Source: a virus (taxonomy: Duplodnaviria > Heunggongvirae > Uroviricota > Caudoviricetes). From it: a DNA stretch of 26,651 nt. The stretch is taken from the IMG/VR virus record IMGVR_UViG_2609459847_000005. One strand, given 5' to 3'. Shown here piece by piece: positions 9,709 through 24,059 of the stretch. Position 1 is the first letter of the stretch; every line of letters begins with the position of its first letter. A model generated the notes under the pieces. That model was given only the letters and a program-made list of their open reading frames with translations, was not told where the DNA came from and ran no database searches. Made by a program: the position numbers and the translations under genes.

Positions 9709-11475
9709 ATGAACACCACACTGACACCCGCAGATCTCGATCCCCGTCGGCAGGCCATGCTGCTGTACTTTCAGGGATACCGCGTAGCCCGCATTGCTGA
9801 AATGCTGGGCGAGAAAGTTGCAACCGTTCACAGCTGGAAAAAACGCGACAAGTGGGGTGACTATGGGCCGCTGGATCAGATGCAGCTCACCACCGCCGCC
9901 CGCTACTGCCAGCTCATTATGAAGGAGCACAAAGAAGGGAAAGATTTCAAAGAAATTGACCTGCTGGCGCGCCAGTCGGAGCGCCACGCGCGGATCGGCA
10001 AGTTTAACAATGGCGGCAACGAAGCCGACTTAAACCCTAACGTCGCCAACCGCAACAAAGGGCCGCGCCGTCAGCCGGAAAAGAATGTTTTCACCGATGA
10101 ACAGATTGAGAAGCTGGAAGAAATCTTCCATTCCTCCATGTTCAACTACCAGCGCCACTGGTGGGAAGCCGGAAAAACCAATCGCATCCGCAACCTGCTG
10201 AAGTCTCGCCAGATCGGCGCGACCTTTTACTTTGCCCGTGAAGCCCTGATTGACGCCCTGCTGACCGGACGTAACCAGATTTTCCTTTCCGCCAGTAAGG
10301 CACAGGCCCACGTCTTTAAGCAGTACATCATCGACTTCGCCAAAGAAGTGGATGTGGAACTGAAAGGCGATCCGATGGTGCTTCCTAACGGGGCCACGCT
10401 TTACTTCCTCGGCACCAATGCCCGCACGGCCCAGAGTTACCACGGCAACCTGTATCTGGATGAATATTTCTGGATACCGAAATTCCAGGAGCTGCGCAAA
10501 GTGGCTTCCGGTATGGCTATTCACAAAAAATGGCGACAAACCTATTTTTCCACGCCATCCAGCCTGACACACAGTGCTTATCCGTTCTGGTCCGGTGCGC
10601 TGTTCAACCGAGGGCGCAACAAAGCCGATAAGGTGGACATCGACCTGTCCCACAGCAATCTGGCCCCCGGCCTGCTGTGCGCAGACGGGCAGTACCGCCA
10701 GATAGTCACCGTGGAAGATGCGGTGCGCGGCGGCTGTAACCTGTTCGACCTTGACCAGTTGCGCATGGAGTACAGCCCGGACGAATACCAGAACCTGCTG
10801 ATGTGCGAGTTCGTGGACGATCTCGCGTCCGTGTTCCCGCTCAGCGAGCTGCAGGCGTGCATGGTGGACAGTTGGGAAGTCTGGACCGACTTTCATGCAC
10901 TGGCCCTGCGCCCGTTTGGCTGGCGCGAAGTGTGGATCGGATATGACCCGGCGAAAGGTACGCAGAACGGCGACAGCGCCGGATGCGTGGTGGTGGCGCC
11001 GCCAGCCGTGCCGGGCGGTAAGTTCCGCATTCTTGAGCGTCACCAGTGGCGCGGAATGGACTTCCGCGCCCAGGCTGACGCCATCAAAAAACTGACCGAA
11101 CAGTACAACGTGACCTATATCGGTATCGACTCAACCGGCGTTGGTCACGGGGTTTACGAGAACGTGAAAGCGTTTTTTCCTGCCGTCCGGGAGTTTGTCT
11201 ACAACCCCAACGTTAAAAACGCCCTGGTACTCAAGGCCTACGACATTATCAGCCACCGCCGTCTGGAGTTTGACGCCGGACACACCGACATAGCGCAGTC
11301 CTTTATGGCAATCCGTCGCGCCACCACCGCCAGTGGCAACCGCCCGACCTATGAAGCCAGCCGCAGCGAAGAAGCCAGCCACGCCGATCTGGCCTGGGCA
11401 ACGATGCACGCACTGTTTAACGAACCGCTGCAGGGCGAATCCGCCAATACCAGCAATATTGTGGAGATTTTTTGA
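9709..11475 (+). CDS. P: Terminase large (ATPase) subunit (P2 gpP-like)
   Basis: 588-aa ORF (P2 P 590 aa); divergent from O; stop overlaps the Q start. Confidence 0.9.
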   Translation: MNTTLTPADLDPRRQAMLLYFQGYRVARIAEMLGEKVATVHSWKKRDKWGDYGPLDQMQLTTAARYCQLIMKEHKEGKDFKEIDLLARQSERHARIGKFNNGGNEADLNPNVANRNKGPRRQPEKNVFTDEQIEKLEEIFHSSMFNYQRHWWEAGKTNRIRNLLKSRQIGATFYFAREALIDALLTGRNQIFLSASKAQAHVFKQYIIDFAKEVDVELKGDPMVLPNGATLYFLGTNARTAQSYHGNLYLDEYFWIPKFQELRKVASGMAIHKKWRQTYFSTPSSLTHSAYPFWSGALFNRGRNKADKVDIDLSHSNLAPGLLCADGQYRQIVTVEDAVRGGCNLFDLDQLRMEYSPDEYQNLLMCEFVDDLASVFPLSELQACMVDSWEVWTDFHALALRPFGWREVWIGYDPAKGTQNGDSAGCVVVAPPAVPGGKFRILERHQWRGMDFRAQADAIKKLTEQYNVTYIGIDSTGVGHGVYENVKAFFPAVREFVYNPNVKNALVLKAYDIISHRRLEFDAGHTDIAQSFMAIRRATTASGNRPTYEASRSEEASHADLAWATMHALFNEPLQGESANTSNIVEIF

Positions 11476-12509
11476 TGGGAAAGAGTAAGAAGAACCGCGC
11501 TGCGGCGACGAAACAGATCCAGCTTAAAAGTCAAACTACAGCCGAAGCATTCAGCTTCGGCGATCCCGTTCCTGTTCTGGACCGCCGAGAACTGCTGGAT
11601 TATGTGGAATGCGTACAGATGGACCGCTGGTATGAGCCGCCCGTCAGCTTTGACGGACTGGCGCGCACCTTCCGCGCTGCCGTGCATCATAGTTCCCCGA
11701 TTGCAGTAAAGTGCAACATTCTGACCAGCACCTACATCCCTCACCCGCTGCTCAGCCAGCAGGCTTTTTCGCGTTTTGTGCAGGACTATCTGGTTTTTGG
11801 TAACGCCTACCTGGAGAAACGCACGAACCGCTTCGGTGAAGTTATCGCCCTTGAGCCTGCACTGGCAAAATACACCCGACGCGGGTTAGACCTGGATACC
11901 TACTGGTTTGTGCAATACGGTATGACAACCCAGCCGTATCAGTTCACGAAAGGCAGCATTTTTCATCTGATGGAACCGGATATTAATCAGGAGATCTACG
12001 GCCTGCCCGGTTATCTTTCTGCCATTCCGTCAGCCCTGCTCAACGAGTCCGCCACGCTGTTCCGTCGCAAGTATTACATTAACGGCAGTCATGCGGGCTT
12101 TATCATGTACATGACCGATGCCGCGCAAAACCAGGAGGATGTGAACAACCTCCGCAATGCGATGAAAAGCGCCAAAGGTCCAGGCAACTTCCGCAACCTG
12201 TTTATGTACTCGCCTAACGGCAAAAAAGACGGGCTTCAGATCATCCCATTGTCAGAAGTCGCGGCGAAGGATGAGTTTTTGAATATCAAAAATGTCAGCC
12301 GCGACGACATGATGGCTGCGCACCGCGTGCCGCCGCAAATGATGGGGATTATGCCTAATAATGTTGGAGGGTTTGGGGATGTGGAGAAGGCTAGTCGCGT
12401 ATTTGTACGTAATGAATTAACGCCCTTGCAAAAAAGGCTACAAGAGCTGAACGACTGGCTGGGCGAAGAAGTGATTAAATTTACGCCCTATATTCTTTCA
12501 GAAGAATAA
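11475..12509 (+). CDS. Q: Portal protein (P2 gpQ-like)
   Basis: ORF 11472..12509; first track codon is TTG, second is ATG at 11475, overlapping the P stop (TGATG); 344 aa, matching P2 Q. Confidence 0.9.
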   Translation: MGKSKKNRAAATKQIQLKSQTTAEAFSFGDPVPVLDRRELLDYVECVQMDRWYEPPVSFDGLARTFRAAVHHSSPIAVKCNILTSTYIPHPLLSQQAFSRFVQDYLVFGNAYLEKRTNRFGEVIALEPALAKYTRRGLDLDTYWFVQYGMTTQPYQFTKGSIFHLMEPDINQEIYGLPGYLSAIPSALLNESATLFRRKYYINGSHAGFIMYMTDAAQNQEDVNNLRNAMKSAKGPGNFRNLFMYSPNGKKDGLQIIPLSEVAAKDEFLNIKNVSRDDMMAAHRVPPQMMGIMPNNVGGFGDVEKASRVFVRNELTPLQKRLQELNDWLGEEVIKFTPYILSEE

Positions 12510-12517
12510 TTCCGAAC

Positions 12518-13216
12518 TTATTTGTTTCTTCTTTGTTCACGCCTTGTCTTGGCTTCGATAAGGCGTTGAGGTTCAGTGTAAAGCCGTTCTAAAAAAAGAT
12601 AGGTAAAATCTTCAAGATCCTCAGCAGCAGCTTTATCCAAAATACCTTCATGCGCTCCATCATTTCCGTCATCTTTAACGCATTCAGCTAGTTCCCTTAA
12701 AGCTTCAGGCAGTAGATGATTATCAAATAACCACTCCATTCTTAACCCTAGGCTTCTCCTTATTTTTTGCGCAGGCCCTTGCTCCCCATCAGGAAGAAGT
12801 CCTTTTGTGGCATAATCAAGGCAAAGCCTAAACATGGTTGCTGCTGCATTATAACAACCTATAGCCAAACATTTCGCCCCTTCCTCATATGCACTATTGA
12901 TATGCTCAGGTAAGAACTCTGGTGGCTCCTCTACTGCTAAGTCTGCCGGTGATATAGGCCTAACAACCTCTGCAACTTCCTTTAAGCCGAATATTCCACT
13001 TTCCCAATTATAGCCATCTAAAGTTTTATTTTTCGTTAAAGGTCTGCAAAGAAACATTGTCGTTTTATGACACTCTCGGCAAACACAATAGACCTCGTAC
13101 TCGTATGTTTTACCCCCGCCCAATGCATTGTAAACCCTAGTGCAATTCAGCCCATTAACATCAAACGCTATTTTTTGTGATCCACATCGTGGACAGTCAT
13201 CCACTAACATAACCAT
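12518..13216 (-). CDS. Hypothetical protein (232 aa): N-terminal zinc ribbon plus C-terminal alpha-helical domain (HEPN/DUF4145-like?)
   Basis: Strong GGGAGGAG Shine-Dalgarno before ATG 13216. N-terminus has CPRCGS...C..CVCRECH (Cys4-type ribbon); C-terminal region has GNDGAH (an NxxxH motif) in a predicted helical domain. AT-rich; sits between the Q 3' end and the putative cos site. Confidence 0.75.
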   Translation of the reverse strand: MVMLVDDCPRCGSQKIAFDVNGLNCTRVYNALGGGKTYEYEVYCVCRECHKTTMFLCRPLTKNKTLDGYNWESGIFGLKEVAEVVRPISPADLAVEEPPEFLPEHINSAYEEGAKCLAIGCYNAAATMFRLCLDYATKGLLPDGEQGPAQKIRRSLGLRMEWLFDNHLLPEALRELAECVKDDGNDGAHEGILDKAAAEDLEDFTYLFLERLYTEPQRLIEAKTRREQRRNK

Positions 13217-13317
13217 GTCAATTACTCCTCCCTATGAAAAAAATGAGTTGAAAAATTGAATATTCACGACTTAAAAAGCTAGCCTATTTAACACCATAAT
13301 TTCATTAATTCAACCAT

Positions 13318-13345
13318 GAGCGCGCGCTCGTATCCCCGCCACGCC
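13318..13345. other. Candidate cos site with adjacent 12-bp perfect palindrome
   Basis: Reverse complement of 13327..13345 is GGCGTGGCGGGGATACGAG; the first 13 nt match the 186-type cohesive end as I recall it (GGCGTGGCGGGGAAAGCAT). Palindrome GAGCGCGCGCTC at 13318..13329. Location between Q and the old/tin-equivalent region fits P2-family genome organisation. Confidence 0.5.
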
Positions 13346-13390
13346 TGCCCGCTTTATGTAGTGGTTTTCATGCGCCTGCATGACATAAGC

Positions 13391-13414
13391 AAAAGCCCGC
13401 CATTCCTAGCGGGC
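13391..13414 (-). terminator. Rho-independent terminator candidate for the minus-strand cargo operon
   Basis: Minus strand reads GCCCGC-taggaatg-GCGGGC followed by TTTT; about 90 nt downstream of the 203-aa gene stop. Confidence 0.55.
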
Positions 13415-13505
13415 CTCAGCTAAAACGATCCTCAAACGATCATGCGGATTCATGCGGCATAGACATGCACAATCGCCAAAGCGGGCATCGAGACTTTTTG
13501 GAAAA

Positions 13506-14117
13506 CTACGTAACCACAGTTAATGTGTGCATCCTGTCTCGAATTGCATCACACGTCTCATCAAAAAGCTTGGTGATGGTTGTACGGTTCAACTCTGCCT
13601 CTTTCCAATAATTTTGCCAGTCAAATTCTGGATCGCCATGCTGAAACGATATTGACTCTGAAAGGCATTCCTTCCGGAAACGGTCCAAGATTATATAAAC
13701 CTCTGGTGAGATGAACGGTTTGTTAGACTCAACACTTGTAACAAAAGTATTAAATGCATCGAAAAAAACTTTCAACCTTCTAAATTTTCTCTCTTCAAAT
13801 GGTTCGTTGGGGTCAAAATGATCCAGCGCAGGCCTCAGCTTAAGCACGCTTTCTCTGGTTTCAAACATCGAATTCCAAATGAGACTATATGCTGATAACT
13901 CCTTATCAAAATACGCTTTCGTTACATAAACAGAATTGTCTAACTTAGCCTTTATTCTTTCATTAGTTGCACTCAGTTGTGATTGAAATTCAGCAATATC
14001 TTTGTTTAGCCGCGACTTATATCTTTCTAAATAAACTTTCCCGATCCAAACAAATATGCCAGATGCAACAAAAGACACCCCACCCAACGAAGCCAGAATT
14101 TTAAAGACTAAATCCAT
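13506..14117 (-). CDS. Hypothetical membrane-anchored protein (203 aa)
   Basis: ATG 14117 preceded by AGGTGGGGG; N-terminal TM helix (ILASLGGVSFVASGIFVWIGKVY) followed by a charged, helix-rich soluble domain; AT-rich; no recognisable domain. Confidence 0.75.
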   Translation of the reverse strand: MDLVFKILASLGGVSFVASGIFVWIGKVYLERYKSRLNKDIAEFQSQLSATNERIKAKLDNSVYVTKAYFDKELSAYSLIWNSMFETRESVLKLRPALDHFDPNEPFEERKFRRLKVFFDAFNTFVTSVESNKPFISPEVYIILDRFRKECLSESISFQHGDPEFDWQNYWKEAELNRTTITKLFDETCDAIRDRMHTLTVVT

Positions 14118-14165
14118 TGCGCCCCCACCTGCAAAAATAGTATTCCATTATAAGCTAATACATTT

Positions 14166-14426
14166 TTAATCAAACAGGGAATAATTCGCGTCAACCTCAT
14201 CACTTCTCTGCTCTACCCTGGTGACTTCCATCAAAAACTCCAGGCCGTCATATAGCGAAACGGGGAATTCCAGCTCAAGCCAGAAGCAGTCTTCATAGGT
14301 GCGGCCCAACCAAAAACCTCCGCCACACTCCTTTGGGCGTTGAAAGAAGACCCAGCCGCCAGGGGTAAACCGTTCCAGCACCTGGCCCCGATAAATAATC
14401 TGGTGATTACTGTCTTTTTTACCCAT
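14166..14426 (-). CDS. Hypothetical small protein (86 aa)
   Basis: ORF 14166..14477 starts at TTG; internal ATG at 14426 (MGKKDSNHQIIYRGQ...) preferred. Lies between the DinI-like gene and the TM protein gene. Coding status moderately supported. Confidence 0.5.
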   Translation of the reverse strand: MGKKDSNHQIIYRGQVLERFTPGGWVFFQRPKECGGGFWLGRTYEDCFWLELEFPVSLYDGLEFLMEVTRVEQRSDEVDANYSLFD

Positions 14427-14499
14427 GGCTAACGCCTCGCTACTCTCGTTGTTCAACCTTGCTGACGTCAGAATCAAGTTCTTACATCAGGAACGTTCC

Positions 14500-14733
14500 T
14501 TAGTGCAGCCAGCTGTCGTCTTCCCAAACCTGCTGCATAATTTCCATCACCCGCTTTTTGTCTTCATCAAGCTTTAAGCCACTCAGCTCAACGCCGTTTG
14601 CCGACCCTTTACGGATGCGGATAGCTGTCTTGGGATAGATGGGTTGCAGGTTGCGGTAAAGCTCGGACTCCAGAGCGTCCAGGGTAGACTGGCTAATCTT
14701 CTGCTCTTTATCGATCATTATTTCAATGCGCAT
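14500..14733 (-). CDS. DinI-family protein (Tum-like antirepressor C-terminal module)
   Basis: Start moved to internal ATG 14733 with GAGGTG Shine-Dalgarno; MRIEIMIDKEQKISQSTLDALESELYRNLQPIYPKTAIRIRKGSANGVELSGLKLDEDKKRVMEIMQQVWEDDSW resembles E. coli DinI (MRIEVTIAK...ETWESADDWF). It is downstream of LexA boxes, as for the 186 tum gene. Confidence 0.8.
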   Translation of the reverse strand: MRIEIMIDKEQKISQSTLDALESELYRNLQPIYPKTAIRIRKGSANGVELSGLKLDEDKKRVMEIMQQVWEDDSWLH

Positions 14734-14743
14734 AAAAGTCACC

Positions 14744-14932
14744 TCAGCTGATGACATCCATTGAGCGGTTGTATTCGTGGGTTCTGATTTTTGCCATGAG
14801 TTCATCTGTCAGTTCAGAAACCCACTGCAGGGCCAGCCCCTTCTCTTCATCACTACACTCACTAGCCGCTACAAGCTTAAGAAAAAAATCAATGCGCTGG
14901 AGCTTCAAAGACTCCAAAAAATAGTCCTGCAT
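14744..14932 (-). CDS. Small protein (62 aa) upstream of the DinI-like gene; possible N-terminal part of a split tum-like module
   Basis: ATG 14932 with AGGAGGAA Shine-Dalgarno; first gene downstream of the LexA-box promoter; 11-nt gap to the DinI-like gene. Confidence 0.65.
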   Translation of the reverse strand: MQDYFLESLKLQRIDFFLKLVAASECSDEEKGLALQWVSELTDELMAKIRTHEYNRSMDVIS

Positions 14933-14959
14933 CTTTCCTCCTATGACACCAAAGCAACA

Positions 14960-14990
14960 CTGTATACATAACCACTGTTTATATTTACAG
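14960..14990 (-). promoter_or_regulatory. LexA operators (SOS boxes) overlapping the promoter of the tum-like operon
   Basis: CTGTTTATATTTACAG at 14975..14990 is a perfect CTGT-N8-ACAG box; the adjacent CTGTATACATAACCAC (14960..14975) is a weaker second box; both are just upstream of the 62-aa gene start. Confidence 0.75.
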
Positions 14991-15084
14991 TATATAATAA
15001 TCTTACTGATGTAAAACGTTTTTTTACGCTCATCAGCCTGATATGCCTGGTATTATTAAGAGCACGAATTGTTAACCTGCGTAA

Positions 15085-17499
15085 TTAATACAGGTTCCGC
15101 CATTTATCATCCTCCTGCAGACGCTGGTTCCGATAGAAGATACGCAGGCCTGCTCCTGACGGAATACTGCCGCCGCGAAGGAGTAAATCGACCTCTTTCT
15201 CGCTGCCATCAAATCCTCTGGACTTCAGTTCATAGACGAGCTGCTGTCGCTGATGATCTGTAATTCGCTGTTTGTAGTCTTTACGCCGTTTCGGTTTAAC
15301 CAGGCGTAACCTTGCTGCCAGTTCCCGGCGCTCTTTTTTGCTCATACTGTGCAGGTAATCGTGCAATTCCTTGTCATCCATGCGGGTGATTTCCGTTCTG
15401 GTATCCCCATCAGCTGATTTGTCTTTCCCTTGTTGGTTCAAATTTTCAGCAAGGGGACAGTTATTGCCACGAGTCCAAGGGGCGCAAGCGCCCTGGTCGG
15501 CTGCCGCCTCCTGAACGTCAACGGCTTTACGAACCATTTTCCACTTCACTGCATGAGTGCAGATCTTGCCCTCTGCAATGGGTGACCAGATGCCATAAAT
15601 ACGAATGCCGTGATCGCCATAGGCGGTCGGCTCTTCGTTGATTTCATAAGCGGTTCTGATGAGGTGATATTTACGGGGAACCAGTACGCCGCCCTGCTTC
15701 ATGATGTAGGTGGCAAAACAACCAGCATCAGCAGCAGCCAGAATGGCATCAAGACGCGGGTTATCCAGTACCGGCGCACCTACTTTTTTGTCACCCTGTT
15801 GCCTTGCCGCCTGACCAGCCAGCAAGCGAAGTTCACGGTAAGCCTGACGCCCCGGAATACCAAAGAAGCGGAATTGCTGAACACGATGCAGAGACGCCCA
15901 GGCATTCACGTATTCAGCGTTATCACGCAGAGATTTACCCGTTTCCTTGCTGATCTCGCCAGCCAGACCACGACCGTCAATGTTCTTACTGATATATTTC
16001 GCGATGTAGCTTGTCGGCGTTCCTTTGCGCGGGTTAATCAACTCAGACTTAAAGCGCGGCCCAGTGTTATTGCCCAGCTCCTCGCGGTCTTCACGGGTGG
16101 CAAACTTACGCAGTAATGCAGTGATGGCACGGCGGTCTTTTTTGCGCATGAAACACAACAGGTGCCAGTGAACGGGGCCGTCATGATGCGGCTCAGCCCC
16201 CCGCACGCCATACCAGCGCAACCCGGCTTTGTGCATCGCCTTACGAAATGCAGCAAACATGCCGACCAGATAATCGCTGCTTTGTCTTACCGTCGCGTTT
16301 GTCCAGGTCGGGTTTGGTCTGCCGTTATTTAGCGTGGAATGGAAACGCGACGGACAGGTGATAGTGTAGAAAACGGCGCAGTCACCGCGCATTTCCGCGA
16401 TAAGCTCCAGACCTTTAACACAGGCCATCATCTCATTGCGGCGATGCGCAGGGTTGCTGCTGCTGGCGTTTACCACATCCTCCATGTCCAGCGTGTCGCC
16501 GTCTTCGTTCACCAGTTCATGAGAACGGAAAAACTCCAGCGACTTACGGCGCTGCTCACGTTTATGCATCACGGCTTCATAGCTGACATAAGGAGATGCT
16601 TTTTTGCTGACCAGGCAAACAGCGCGCAACTGCTCTTCCCGCCATTCGCAACGCATCTTCCATAATTTCCGATACCACCAGTCGCCGCACAACATACGCG
16701 CCAGCGAACCCGGAATGAGTTCATAGGGCACGGGTTTACGGCGGTTTCTTTTCCGACGGAGTTGCTCAAACGCAGGTGGGATGACATCCAGACGCAGGGT
16801 TTCCGCCGCCACCTTTTCCCATGTCTTGCGGATTTCTTCTGGCTTAACGTCATCGGTGGCATACAAATCGCCACAAGCTGCATCAAGGCACATGCTCATA
16901 TGCGCAGCTACCAGGGTGGACAGGCGTTTCACATGATCCTGACTCATTTCAGGCAGGATCAGCAGGCCGTCCAGCCCTTCATGGCTTGCCATAAAGCGAA
17001 AAGAAGTGGATAGCTGACTCTCGCGTACATGCTCCAGTCGTTCCAGACATGGCTTAATCGTCTCACGCAAATAGCGGGAATAAGCCTTTGGCCTGCCCAG
17101 GCTGCTGAAGTATTCAATACGTTGCATCAGCGGCTTGCTGATATGGGAAGGCTGGGCGTTGACGTCCGCCAGAATGACCATATCCGGATTAAAACGCTGC
17201 TGCTCATGCGCCAGCTTTGCCCGGCTAATGAGCTTATCCTGCTCCATTTCGCGCTGGACAGGATCACGGGATTCATTAAAGAAATAACGCTCCCAGACCT
17301 GATCACTCAGTGCCTCGCGGCGCAGTTGTTCCTGCTCGTTATCGGCAGCGTACAGAGTGATCAGGTTTGAAAGCGCAGAAACCGGCGCAACTTCTGCCGG
17401 GTCCAGATAAGGGTTAATAGCCTTTTTCGGGCTGTCCCATGAGAATGCTGCGGCGGCCTCGTTAAAGCCGCTGCAGTTGTTCATATCAGCATGGCTCAT
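15085..17499 (-). CDS. A: Replication initiation endonuclease (P2 gpA-like rolling-circle Rep)
   Basis: 804-aa ORF; HUH-type motif (PVHWHLLCF) and tyrosine-containing [12 protein letters not shown]; ATG overlaps the dam stop; P2 A is about 761 aa. Confidence 0.9.
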
Positions 17500-22325: not shown

Positions 22326-24059
22326 CTACTCAAGGAGATATTCTAACTCATCTTTTATCGGGATAATTTGCTCATAAAGTCGGTGATATGACTTCCCAAT
22401 TGCGCCTCTAAATTGTATTAACTTTGGTGGCTTACTACCTATATTAATAATATGGTCTTGAGCTATACCTGGGTAGGGATCAATAAATACAATTTCAGAT
22501 ATACCTAACTGATAAGCTTTTTTCGCACACAACTCACAGGGACTGGCAGTTGTATACAACTTCCCCCCCAGAACGCCAATACCACCATATTTTGCAAGTT
22601 GTAAAAATGCGTTTTCCTCAGCATGTAATGCACGTGTATGAACTTGATTACCTTTTTTCTCTTTATCAAGATCATTATGTATATCTTTAAAACAATAAGA
22701 TAAGTTCCTGCCTCTATAAATATCACCAGTTTTATCTATCGCCCTAAAATTTAAGAGTTTCTCATTAGCTTTAATTCTGAAAGAACTATTATTTCTCTCA
22801 TAATGACTGTACGTTTTTTCATCAAAATCGTTCATTAGGCCATCTAGAGATCTCATAGAGCAAGGAATCTGACCGTTGGCAACATCATTCCAACCAACTG
22901 ATTTTATTGAATTATCACCATCAGTTACTACAGCTCCCACCTGTCTAGATATACAGCCAGAGTTTAATTTTACCGTATACGCAACTTGCATAACCCTTTC
23001 CATTGCAGTAGGTGTTATCAGACCAGGATGCTTCATCAGTGCGATGTACCACGCTAATTGTGCTTTTAAAATATTGTCATTATCAAATTCATTTTTTGGG
23101 TTAAAAATGTGTATATCTGATAGTTCAATACATTTAGTTACATTTGGATTGGTGAGATGTTTGTAAGAGTTATCACCTTTACCTGACTCTACAGAATCTA
23201 TTTCCTCTATCTGCTTTTCTGAAAACTTATGTAGTTTCCGCAAATAGTTTGTTCGATGTTCATCTGGGGCATTTATTGACATTAAATGAAATGCAGAATA
23301 TCTATCCTTAAAAAATTTTGCCTCATATGGATTTCTAATAGCATCTATGACAATTAATGCGTTATCTCTTTTGCTTTTTCTTATTAATTTAATAACCCTA
23401 TTAATAGTTTCCGGCAAATGAAAAACAGATTTAGGCATAAACTCTTTATCTTCAAAATCGACTTCAATACGCCCACGACGTCTAATTGACTTACCTGCTA
23501 ACTGATAGGCTGAAACATATAAATTTGAGTTTATCTCATTTAGTTCAGCTTTGAATTCTTTAGTAAATTTTCTAACTAACTTCAAAATTGATATAAATTT
23601 ATTAATCGTTTTTTCATCAAACTTCAATTCACTATTATGATCAAGCAAATTCTCAATTACATTTTTAAATCTTGTCAAAATGAGATTATCTGAGAATACA
23701 CCAAAAGTTAATACAATATCTAAATGCTCTTTACTGATAAATTTATTAGATGATAGAATGAATTCAGAAGCTTCCTCAACTGTTAACATCAGAAGATACG
23801 CTGAGATTAGGTCACTCACCTTAATTGAGTAAAAATTTTCCCAGTGATTTTCTGCGAATTTTTTAACTATATTATAACGATGGACATCCAATCCCTTGTA
23901 AAACCCCTGTAATTTACTTACATCAGGGAAGACTGTTTTTTCGTTTTCAAGAATATTAGCTGTTGTTGTGCAACCAGAACCAGTTCGACCTGTCAAACCG
24001 ACTAAAATAAACTGCCCATTTTCAAGGAAAAGCTCACTAACGAATTTTTTTTCTTTCAT
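22326..24059 (-). CDS. P-loop NTPase / dCMP-dCTP deaminase fusion (AvcD/DCD-like nucleotide-depletion defence protein)
   Basis: 577 aa from ATG 24059 (track ORF starts at GTG 24062). N-terminal P-loop region with non-canonical Walker A (GLTGRTGSGCTT, no Lys) and Walker-B-like LIVID. C-terminal cytidine/dCMP deaminase signatures (RQVGAVV...GWN; HAEENA; PCELC zinc-binding motifs). Strongly AT-rich relative to the phage backbone. Confidence 0.8.
   Translation of the reverse strand: MKEKKFVSELFLENGQFILVGLTGRTGSGCTTTANILENEKTVFPDVSKLQGFYKGLDVHRYNIVKKFAENHWENFYSIKVSDLISAYLLMLTVEEASEFILSSNKFISKEHLDIVLTFGVFSDNLILTRFKNVIENLLDHNSELKFDEKTINKFISILKLVRKFTKEFKAELNEINSNLYVSAYQLAGKSIRRRGRIEVDFEDKEFMPKSVFHLPETINRVIKLIRKSKRDNALIVIDAIRNPYEAKFFKDRYSAFHLMSINAPDEHRTNYLRKLHKFSEKQIEEIDSVESGKGDNSYKHLTNPNVTKCIELSDIHIFNPKNEFDNDNILKAQLAWYIALMKHPGLITPTAMERVMQVAYTVKLNSGCISRQVGAVVTDGDNSIKSVGWNDVANGQIPCSMRSLDGLMNDFDEKTYSHYERNNSSFRIKANEKLLNFRAIDKTGDIYRGRNLSYCFKDIHNDLDKEKKGNQVHTRALHAEENAFLQLAKYGGIGVLGGKLYTTASPCELCAKKAYQLGISEIVFIDPYPGIAQDHIINIGSKPPKLIQFRGAIGKSYHRLYEQIIPIKDELEYLLE

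Follow-up and report, generated by a model that had tools for sequence, protein, structure and literature searches.

A zinc-ribbon–DUF4145/HEPN gene in the Q-cos slot of a P2-like prophage as a candidate RAZR-like abortive-infection effector

In the P2-like prophage of Escherichia coli LF82, which has been deposited as phage Cartapus, a cargo gene encoding a zinc-ribbon protein with a C-terminal DUF4145/HEPN domain lies between the portal gene Q and the putative cos site. We analysed this gene within a stretch of 26,651 nucleotides (IMG/VR virus record IMGVR_UViG_2609459847_000005), below called the window. The gene is CARTA_1, LF82_788 or WP_000245245.1, and its window sequence is 100% identical to the Cartapus and LF82 copies. 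We consider it reasonably probable that its product is a single-gene abortive-infection effector resembling RAZR (ring-activated zinc-finger RNase), which P2-like prophages and many other elements carry as an exchangeable moron. A first-pass annotation of the sequence had already suggested a single-gene abortive-infection protein among cos-proximal cargo, and we retain this candidate on the strength of the DUF4145 match, the HEPN fold, the absence of a partner gene and the AIPR and retron genes that occupy the same slot in related prophages. The labels currently attached to WP_000245245 are merely 'DUF4145 domain-containing protein' or 'DNA binding protein'.

The gene and the parts of its product map to the window as follows.

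12518 to 13216, minus strand: cargo coding sequence with an ATG start, encoding the zinc-ribbon and DUF4145/HEPN protein of 232 amino acids (from the open reading frame listing)
13043 to 13216, minus strand: zinc-ribbon, sensor-like domain (amino acids 1-58; zinc ligands C8, C11, C46 and C49)
12926 to 13042, minus strand: linker (amino acids 59-97), with an insertion of about 27 residues relative to RAZR (MAFFT map to RAZR-Ec)
12572 to 12925, minus strand: DUF4145/HEPN-fold domain (amino acids 98-215)
12650 to 12676, minus strand: putative active-site motif K181-D-D-G-N185-D-G-A-H189

The motifs that define this layout are CPRCGS (amino acids 8-13), CVCRECH (44-50) and GNDGAH (184-189). They are in place as first described, a Cys4 zinc ribbon paired with a helical C-terminal domain carrying GNDGAH, and the four cysteines C8, C11, C46 and C49 are invariant among 83 aligned homologues, as are R130, R159, K181, N185, H189 and R211; C44 and C25 vary. 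The HEPN/DUF4145-like nature of the C-terminus was likewise confirmed, in that a hidden Markov model (HMM) search passed the Pfam gathering threshold for DUF4145 (amino acids 114-203; 30.3 against 23.1 bits) and the structure search gave a HEPN fold for the modelled C-terminal domain. A search of NCBIfam with the protein returned no match. In PHROGs, the entire protein was covered by a match to phrog_1305 (E 9.5e-53), a family labelled 'DNA binding protein', a label without support from anything found in our analysis.

The structural model used here was predicted by AlphaFold2 from the 83-sequence multiple sequence alignment and is confident, with a pLDDT of 86.5 as compared to 39.5 for a model from the single sequence. 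Its zinc-ribbon domain is beta-rich, with strands at residues 3-6, 16-30, 36-46 and 52-59. The sole low-confidence stretch comprises residues 184-190, where GNDGAH falls below a pLDDT of 50, and it may be that this loop, which is the most conserved motif of the family, becomes ordered only in an oligomer. A Foldseek search of the model against the PDB gave no significant match, and a fold search of BFVD matched solely a homologue of the size of the Virgibacillus phage protein described below. As to the presumed catalytic residues, the canonical HEPN motif Rx4-6H, which about 80% of DUF4145 members keep (Anantharaman 2013), appears as K-x7-H in the cargo protein and as R-x7-H in RAZR itself.

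RAZR was found as PD-T7-4 by Vassallo et al. 2022 (PMC9519451) and renamed by Zhang et al. (Nature 2026, PMC13017515), whose findings are as follows. The protein stems from E. coli UMB1727 (structures PDB 9Y9C/9Y6U), has a size of about 25 kDa, combines a Cys4 zinc ribbon at its N-terminus with a DUF4145/HEPN domain at its C-terminus, and forms inactive linear oligomers. Upon infection, it assembles as a 24-mer around phage rings of about 170 Å, which are made of an Erf-like recombinase or of the portal of T7, T3 or SECphi18, and the activated protein cleaves single-stranded RNA non-specifically, which leads to abortive infection. R146 and H154 are essential, with R146A abolishing defence, and the helix residues D179/D180/R184 make the dimer-dimer contacts. 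Specificity is set by the zinc-finger domain, which binds phage protein rings and not nucleic acid. Known so far are the E. coli protein and a homologue from Klebsiella variicola that is 78% identical.

The cargo protein is related to this family. PD-T7-4 was its sole match in PADLOC (26.1 bits, E 1.2e-6, 127 of 211 model positions). The comparison with RAZR was made by way of bona fide PD-T7-4 members from two Streptococcus prophages, Javan263 (236 bits on the PADLOC model) and Javan231 (239 bits); their relatives were collected into a family profile, which led to the RAZR-Ec chain from PDB 9y9c at 260 bits, and R146 and H154 of RAZR-Ec were located in DICRIVGNQAVHPGE, matching the publication. 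When the cargo sequence alone was compared with the PDB sequences, nothing relevant was found, and a profile built from its own clade retrieved no PDB chain at E<=10. BLASTP, on the other hand, aligned the cargo protein to the Javan263 protein with 21% identity over 216 collinear residues (E 3e-9), and hhalign of the clade profile against the RAZR family profile gave a probability of 97.7% (E 1.5e-12, 152 columns). Thus, the first-pass statement that no named defence family could be assigned needs to be revised in part: a relative, RAZR/PD-T7-4, is now demonstrable, though the protein itself lies outside that family proper.

Starting from the first CxxC, the alignment with RAZR stays collinear, linker included, up to the end of the HEPN domain, with 20% identity over 182 aligned positions. 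It pairs C16/C19/C49/C52 of RAZR with C8/C11/C46/C49 of the cargo protein, R105 with R130, N150 with N185, and the catalytic H154 with the invariant H189. Furthermore, both are single proteins of about 25 kDa with a conserved Pro-rich linker, in which D92/P98/P99/P103 of the cargo protein match the RAZR linker, and both reside on mobile elements and prophages. In the clade of the cargo protein as in RAZR, the sensor domain diverges much faster than the effector. Mean pairwise identity in the 83-sequence alignment is 70% for the HEPN domain, 49% for the zinc ribbon and 28% for the linker, and one allele compared with the window protein has 93% identity in the HEPN domain, 64% in the zinc ribbon and 54% in the linker.

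There are also clear differences. The cargo protein has an insertion of about 27 residues after the zinc ribbon and another of about 9 residues inside the HEPN domain, its motif reads KDDGNDGAHEG where RAZR has R(I/V)VGNxAVHPG, and E210/R211/E215 stand in place of D179/D180/R184. The genomic setting differs as well, the cargo gene lying in the Q-cos slot of a P2-like prophage and the RAZR gene overlapping an integrase. In this context, we noted a bona fide RAZR-family gene, P0219 (208 amino acids), in Vibrio parahaemolyticus (L091, 2772-4627), which lies divergently beside a phage-type integrase. This neighbourhood fits the comment that homologues of PD-T7-4 frequently lie at integrase genes (Vassallo et al. 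2022, PMC9519451), and stands in contrast to the window protein's clade with its Q-cos slot.

Several observations weigh against an effector of the RAZR type. The essential R146 of RAZR aligns with K181, and the active-site loop KDDGNDGAHEG is unusually acidic and poorly modelled. Only one of the five residues through which RAZR contacts its trigger is shared by the cargo protein, whose score on the family HMM is 26 bits as against 236-260 for true members, and both structure searches with the predicted model missed the solved RAZR structure PDB 9y9c. WP_000245245 was not among the systems tested in the two hotspot papers (Rousset 2022, Vassallo 2022), and it was not found in those parts of the DefensePredictor supplements that our search covered. 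Finally, virions of each of the five LF82 prophages are still released, and for a P22-like one of them this amounts to about 1 per cell; the rings of these phages are evidently no efficient trigger for the cargo protein. Because of the low score, the lysine in place of arginine and the longer linker, the cargo protein, as judged from these alignments, is a remote RAZR homologue with RAZR architecture that stands outside the RAZR family proper.

The clade to which it belongs, which we refer to by its GNDGAH motif, is large and broadly distributed. Clustered at 90% identity, homologues amount to 603 clusters in a search with the single sequence and to 2,258 in a search with the family profile (E<=0.001), and full-length identities of 44-52% are found in alpha-, beta-, gamma- and delta-proteobacteria, Verrucomicrobia, Planctomycetes, Nitrospirae, Omnitrophota and others. 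The residue at position 181 is lysine in 83 of 83 aligned homologues and glutamine in one further homologue (P0064); other sampled zinc-ribbon-DUF4145 clades (Burkholderia, Stx-phage, Gordonia, Virgibacillus and the RAZR family) keep the arginine. A large and taxonomically broad clade with lysine for the essential arginine thus offers a probe of how far ring-templated HEPN activation extends and of the residues on which it depends. Remote zinc-ribbon-DUF4145 homologues take up other moron positions in two phages: in Gordonia phage Meyran (L004, 94-783), the homologue lies as gene 1 next to the genome end and the terminase genes, and in Virgibacillus phage Mimir87 (L087, 2183-3115), a protein of 310 amino acids is encoded by a gene inserted between tail genes.

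If the cargo protein works as RAZR does, its N-terminal Cys4 zinc-ribbon domain would act as the infection sensor and its C-terminal DUF4145/HEPN domain as a latent RNase. In the lysogen, the protein would be inactive, probably in the form of dimers or linear oligomers. The fast-evolving part made up of zinc ribbon and linker would bind a multimeric protein of the invading phage, binding of this trigger would bring the HEPN domains into an active geometry, and the active enzyme would then cut single-stranded RNA, such that translation stops and the infection is aborted. The step of ring-templated activation, which is modelled on RAZR, is proposed with less confidence than the effector reading as a whole. 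By the same analogy, the earlier view of the zinc ribbon as a nucleic-acid-recognition module is probably wrong, because the zinc finger of RAZR binds phage protein rings.

With respect to the trigger, it is conceivable, though in our estimate rather unlikely, that the same HEPN nuclease effector senses something other than large rings, such as a phage protein in monomeric form, nucleic acid or a perturbation of the host, in which case the mechanism of RAZR would not carry over. The zinc-ribbon domain would permit this, as it shares with RAZR the Cys ligands and only one of the five contact residues, it is followed by the 27-residue insertion, and the hhalign coverage begins at residue 36. Nucleic acids are often bound by zinc ribbons, and the PHROGs label 'DNA binding protein' would fit such a role, but we found no experimental basis for this label. 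Also, the collinear alignment with the RAZR family extends from the first CxxC to the HEPN end, and the family-invariant E210/R211/E215 align with D179/D180/R184 of RAZR in a charge-swapped yet comparable arrangement, both of which speak for a sensor of the RAZR kind. This match to the interface residues of RAZR is also the one hint, an indirect one, of higher-order oligomerisation. A precedent for a different sensor is DS-38 (HEP2, WP_001313577, 366 amino acids, a gene of 1,101 nucleotides), an E. coli defence protein with zinc finger and HEPN domain that was validated by DefensePredictor (Science 2026). According to its authors, the HEPN domain of DS-38 alone aligns with PD-T7-4, showing that proteins of this composition may share only the HEPN domain with PD-T7-4. 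DS-38 resembles the cargo protein in combining zinc finger and HEPN in one E. coli protein, and we considered and rejected identity of the two, given the different accessions and lengths (366 amino acids as opposed to 232 for WP_000245245). Other HEPN-containing abortive-infection and toxin RNases (AbiV, the HEPN domain of AbiA, LsoA/RnlA, HEPN-MNT toxins, Csm6) differ from the cargo protein in that they have no zinc-ribbon fusion and are regulated by antitoxins or cyclic nucleotides, not by a fused sensor.

The genomic location is consistent with the RAZR-like effector that we favour. The gpA-cos-gpQ region of the P2 family has already been described as a defence hotspot (Rousset et al. 2022, PMC9122126; hotspot #1 in Vassallo et al. 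2022, PMC9519451), with a cargo that ranges from old and tin in P2 to retrons, AIPR, DUF4238, DprA-PRTase and others. In Table S5A of Rousset et al. (PMC9122126), WP_000245245 appears as 'DUF4145' in at least 17 entries. The cargo gene shares with other hotspot cargo the locus, the low GC content, the variable occupancy and the expression from the prophage, and it differs in lying on the Q side of cos, old and tin being located on the A side.

The occupancy of the slot is variable indeed, as had been surmised for a cos-proximal hotspot. Of 5,426 complete E. coli genomes, 46 carry the gene, always in the Q-cos slot, as compared to 1,278 genomes that have homologous flanks. Comparison with related prophages shows that in sister prophages with the same flanking genes, this slot holds an AIPR protein, a retron St85 reverse transcriptase with its effector, or an unrelated protein of 416 amino acids; in other P2-like prophages, this position is taken by diverged alleles of the cargo gene, with amino-acid identities of 78% and 69%.

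We surveyed the neighbourhood of 80 family loci, taken from different species, and found no conserved partner gene, no neighbour family occurring in more than seven of them, and the immediate neighbours belong to 161 Pfam families, each of which is found at most twice. The description as a stand-alone gene thus holds, and a conserved operon partner anywhere in the family was rejected. The neighbours include integrases, methylases, Mrr, TIR, other HEPN proteins and transposases. P2-like prophages account for 7 of the 80 loci, and in each of these the portal gene is the immediate neighbour; for this reason we also dismissed the notion of a P2-specific gene.

A candidate partner within the window was the adjacent protein of 203 amino acids (13506-14117, minus strand, LF82_789), which was rejected because it is also present with other cargo in sister prophages. 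This protein has a hydrophobic N-terminus and a coiled-coil-like region and matches phrog_26391 (E 6e-144); no Pfam family scored above threshold. In some RefSeq genomes it is tagged 'valyl-tRNA synthetase', apparently by way of a sub-threshold match to the C-terminal arm of Val-tRNA synthetase. LF82_789 is a recognised moron of Cartapus, 7-fold above background, and is found in sister prophages regardless of the cargo on the Q side.

The surroundings of the cargo gene comprise the following features.

11472 to 12509, plus strand: portal gene Q, convergent with the cargo gene across a gap of 8 nucleotides
13225 to 13232, minus strand: Shine-Dalgarno sequence GGGAGGAG, 8 nucleotides 5′ of the ATG, as read from the sequence
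13286 to 13313, minus strand: tentative sigma-70-like promoter, TTGAAT-N16-TTAAAT, with 8 of 12 matches, identified by eye and below the scan threshold
13319 to 13377, no strand: putative cos, from the Cartapus annotation mapped onto the window
13388 to 13421, minus strand: terminator-like hairpin and U-run (dG -22.9 kcal/mol, z -3.4, followed by UUUUGCUU), from RNA folding

The open reading frame with a strong Shine-Dalgarno sequence was found at 12518-13216 on the minus strand, preceded by GGGAGGAG, as originally reported. Its base composition calls for a more careful statement. With a GC content of 41.8% (GC3 31.8%), the gene is indeed AT-rich relative to the phage backbone, where the terminase gene P has 57.0%, Q 51.3% (GC3 61%) and gpA 53.3%. 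The description as strongly AT-rich does not hold for the window at large, in which 16% of all 699-nt windows are equally AT-rich or more so.

The cargo gene is transcribed autonomously in the lysogen, as can be deduced from the RNA-seq table of Misson et al. 2023. There, the log2 expression of LF82_788 is 4.7 in LB, 7.1-7.6 in DMEM and 9.2-9.6 in macrophages, whereas the portal, terminase and gpA genes (Q, P, A) stay at 2.3-3.0 under the same conditions. Our promoter scan yielded no consensus promoter for the cargo gene. According to the same table (Misson et al. 2023), all five hotspot genes (LF82_788, 789, 790, DinI and 791; 12510-15084) are up by about 4-7 log2 (16- to 100-fold) in macrophages as compared to LB. 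Since these five genes rise while Q, P and gpA remain at background, the cargo block is regulated apart from the lytic programme.

This expression pattern invites the question whether the gene is a moron that acts on host physiology and not in defence, for instance as a stress-induced RNase, an RNA-binding regulator or a HEPN protein with altered catalysis that binds but does not cleave, and that helps a stressed or intracellular lysogen. The transcript is about 30-fold higher in macrophages than in LB, along with neighbouring hotspot genes, the arginine of the canonical HEPN motif is replaced by lysine in an acidic loop, and many HEPN families are inactive (Anantharaman 2013). However, the invariance of K181, N185 and H189 argues for retained chemistry, the family members are surrounded by integrases, methylases, Mrr, TIR, further HEPN proteins and transposases, and known defences occupy the same slot of sister prophages. 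Furthermore, a role in the host niche is unlikely because the clade, at 44-52% identity, is spread across free-living Proteobacteria, Planctomycetes, Verrucomicrobia, Nitrospirae and Omnitrophota. Taken together, we regard such a host-directed function as improbable.

The relation of the gene to cos can be derived from the Cartapus record, which starts at about window position 13377 and whose first 59 nucleotides are annotated as putative cos, homologous to P2 cos. This places cos at about 13319-13377, roughly 100 nucleotides upstream of the cargo gene, so that the latter, in the cos-Q interval, is the leftmost gene of the linear genome. In P2, the interval between cosL and Q holds the terminator tQ alone and no gene, old and tin being on the other side of cos; the claim that the gene sits where P2 has none is therefore borne out. 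Upstream, the hairpin at 13388-13421, as interpreted from its sequence and predicted folding, is terminator-like and would end the orf203 transcript before cos and thus insulate the cargo gene. A scan of 12000-15300 against Rfam gave no match.

The proximity to cos and to the portal gene might also indicate a function in the phage life cycle, such as an accessory factor that binds cos or aids packaging, or a partner of the portal, and the position of the Meyran homologue as gene 1, by the genome end and the terminase genes, could be cited in its support. We consider this highly improbable, in view of the fact that P2 lacks the gene, as do more than 95% of the P2-like prophages with the same flanks, that unrelated defence genes replace it in the slot, that 73 of the 80 family loci lie outside P2-like prophages, and that it is expressed in the lysogen with the late genes silent.

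For an abortive-infection effector of the RAZR type, which is the reading we prefer, the position beside Q raises a question of its own, namely how a temperate phage that carries a portal-sensing-type effector next to its own portal gene escapes triggering its own cargo. The stop codons of Q and of the cargo gene lie at 12509 and 12518, and our scan found no plus-strand terminator between the two. Since the genes are convergent and lack an intervening terminator, where P2 has tQ, late transcription of P and Q would run antisense through the cargo gene. Such antisense transcription could silence the effector just as the prophage builds its own portal rings. The cargo of sister prophages is also convergent with Q. 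In a speculative extension, which we hold to be unlikely, the GNDGAH clade would be a functionally distinct sister of RAZR, and antisense P-Q transcription would serve P2-like prophages as a self-immunity switch. The lysine-based centre in an acidic loop and the enlarged sensor of this clade might in this case be directed at other phage assemblies, or entail a different chemistry or substrate. Genes of this kind may go partly uncounted when P2-like prophages are surveyed for defence systems, because the PADLOC match to PD-T7-4 is weak (26 bits).

Two palindromes in the window deserve mention. A perfect LexA-box-like palindrome, CTGTTTATATTTACAG, is located at 14975-14990, just upstream (on the minus strand) of an open reading frame of 62 amino acids and the DinI gene, and it fits the strong rise of the LF82_791 and DinI transcripts in macrophages. 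A second perfect palindrome of the type CTGT-N8-ACAG, CTGTCTAGATATACAG, is found at 22941-22956, inside a long minus-strand open reading frame beyond the integrase end of the prophage. This one is probably due to chance, as there are 12 matches at <=1 mismatch where about 9 are expected.

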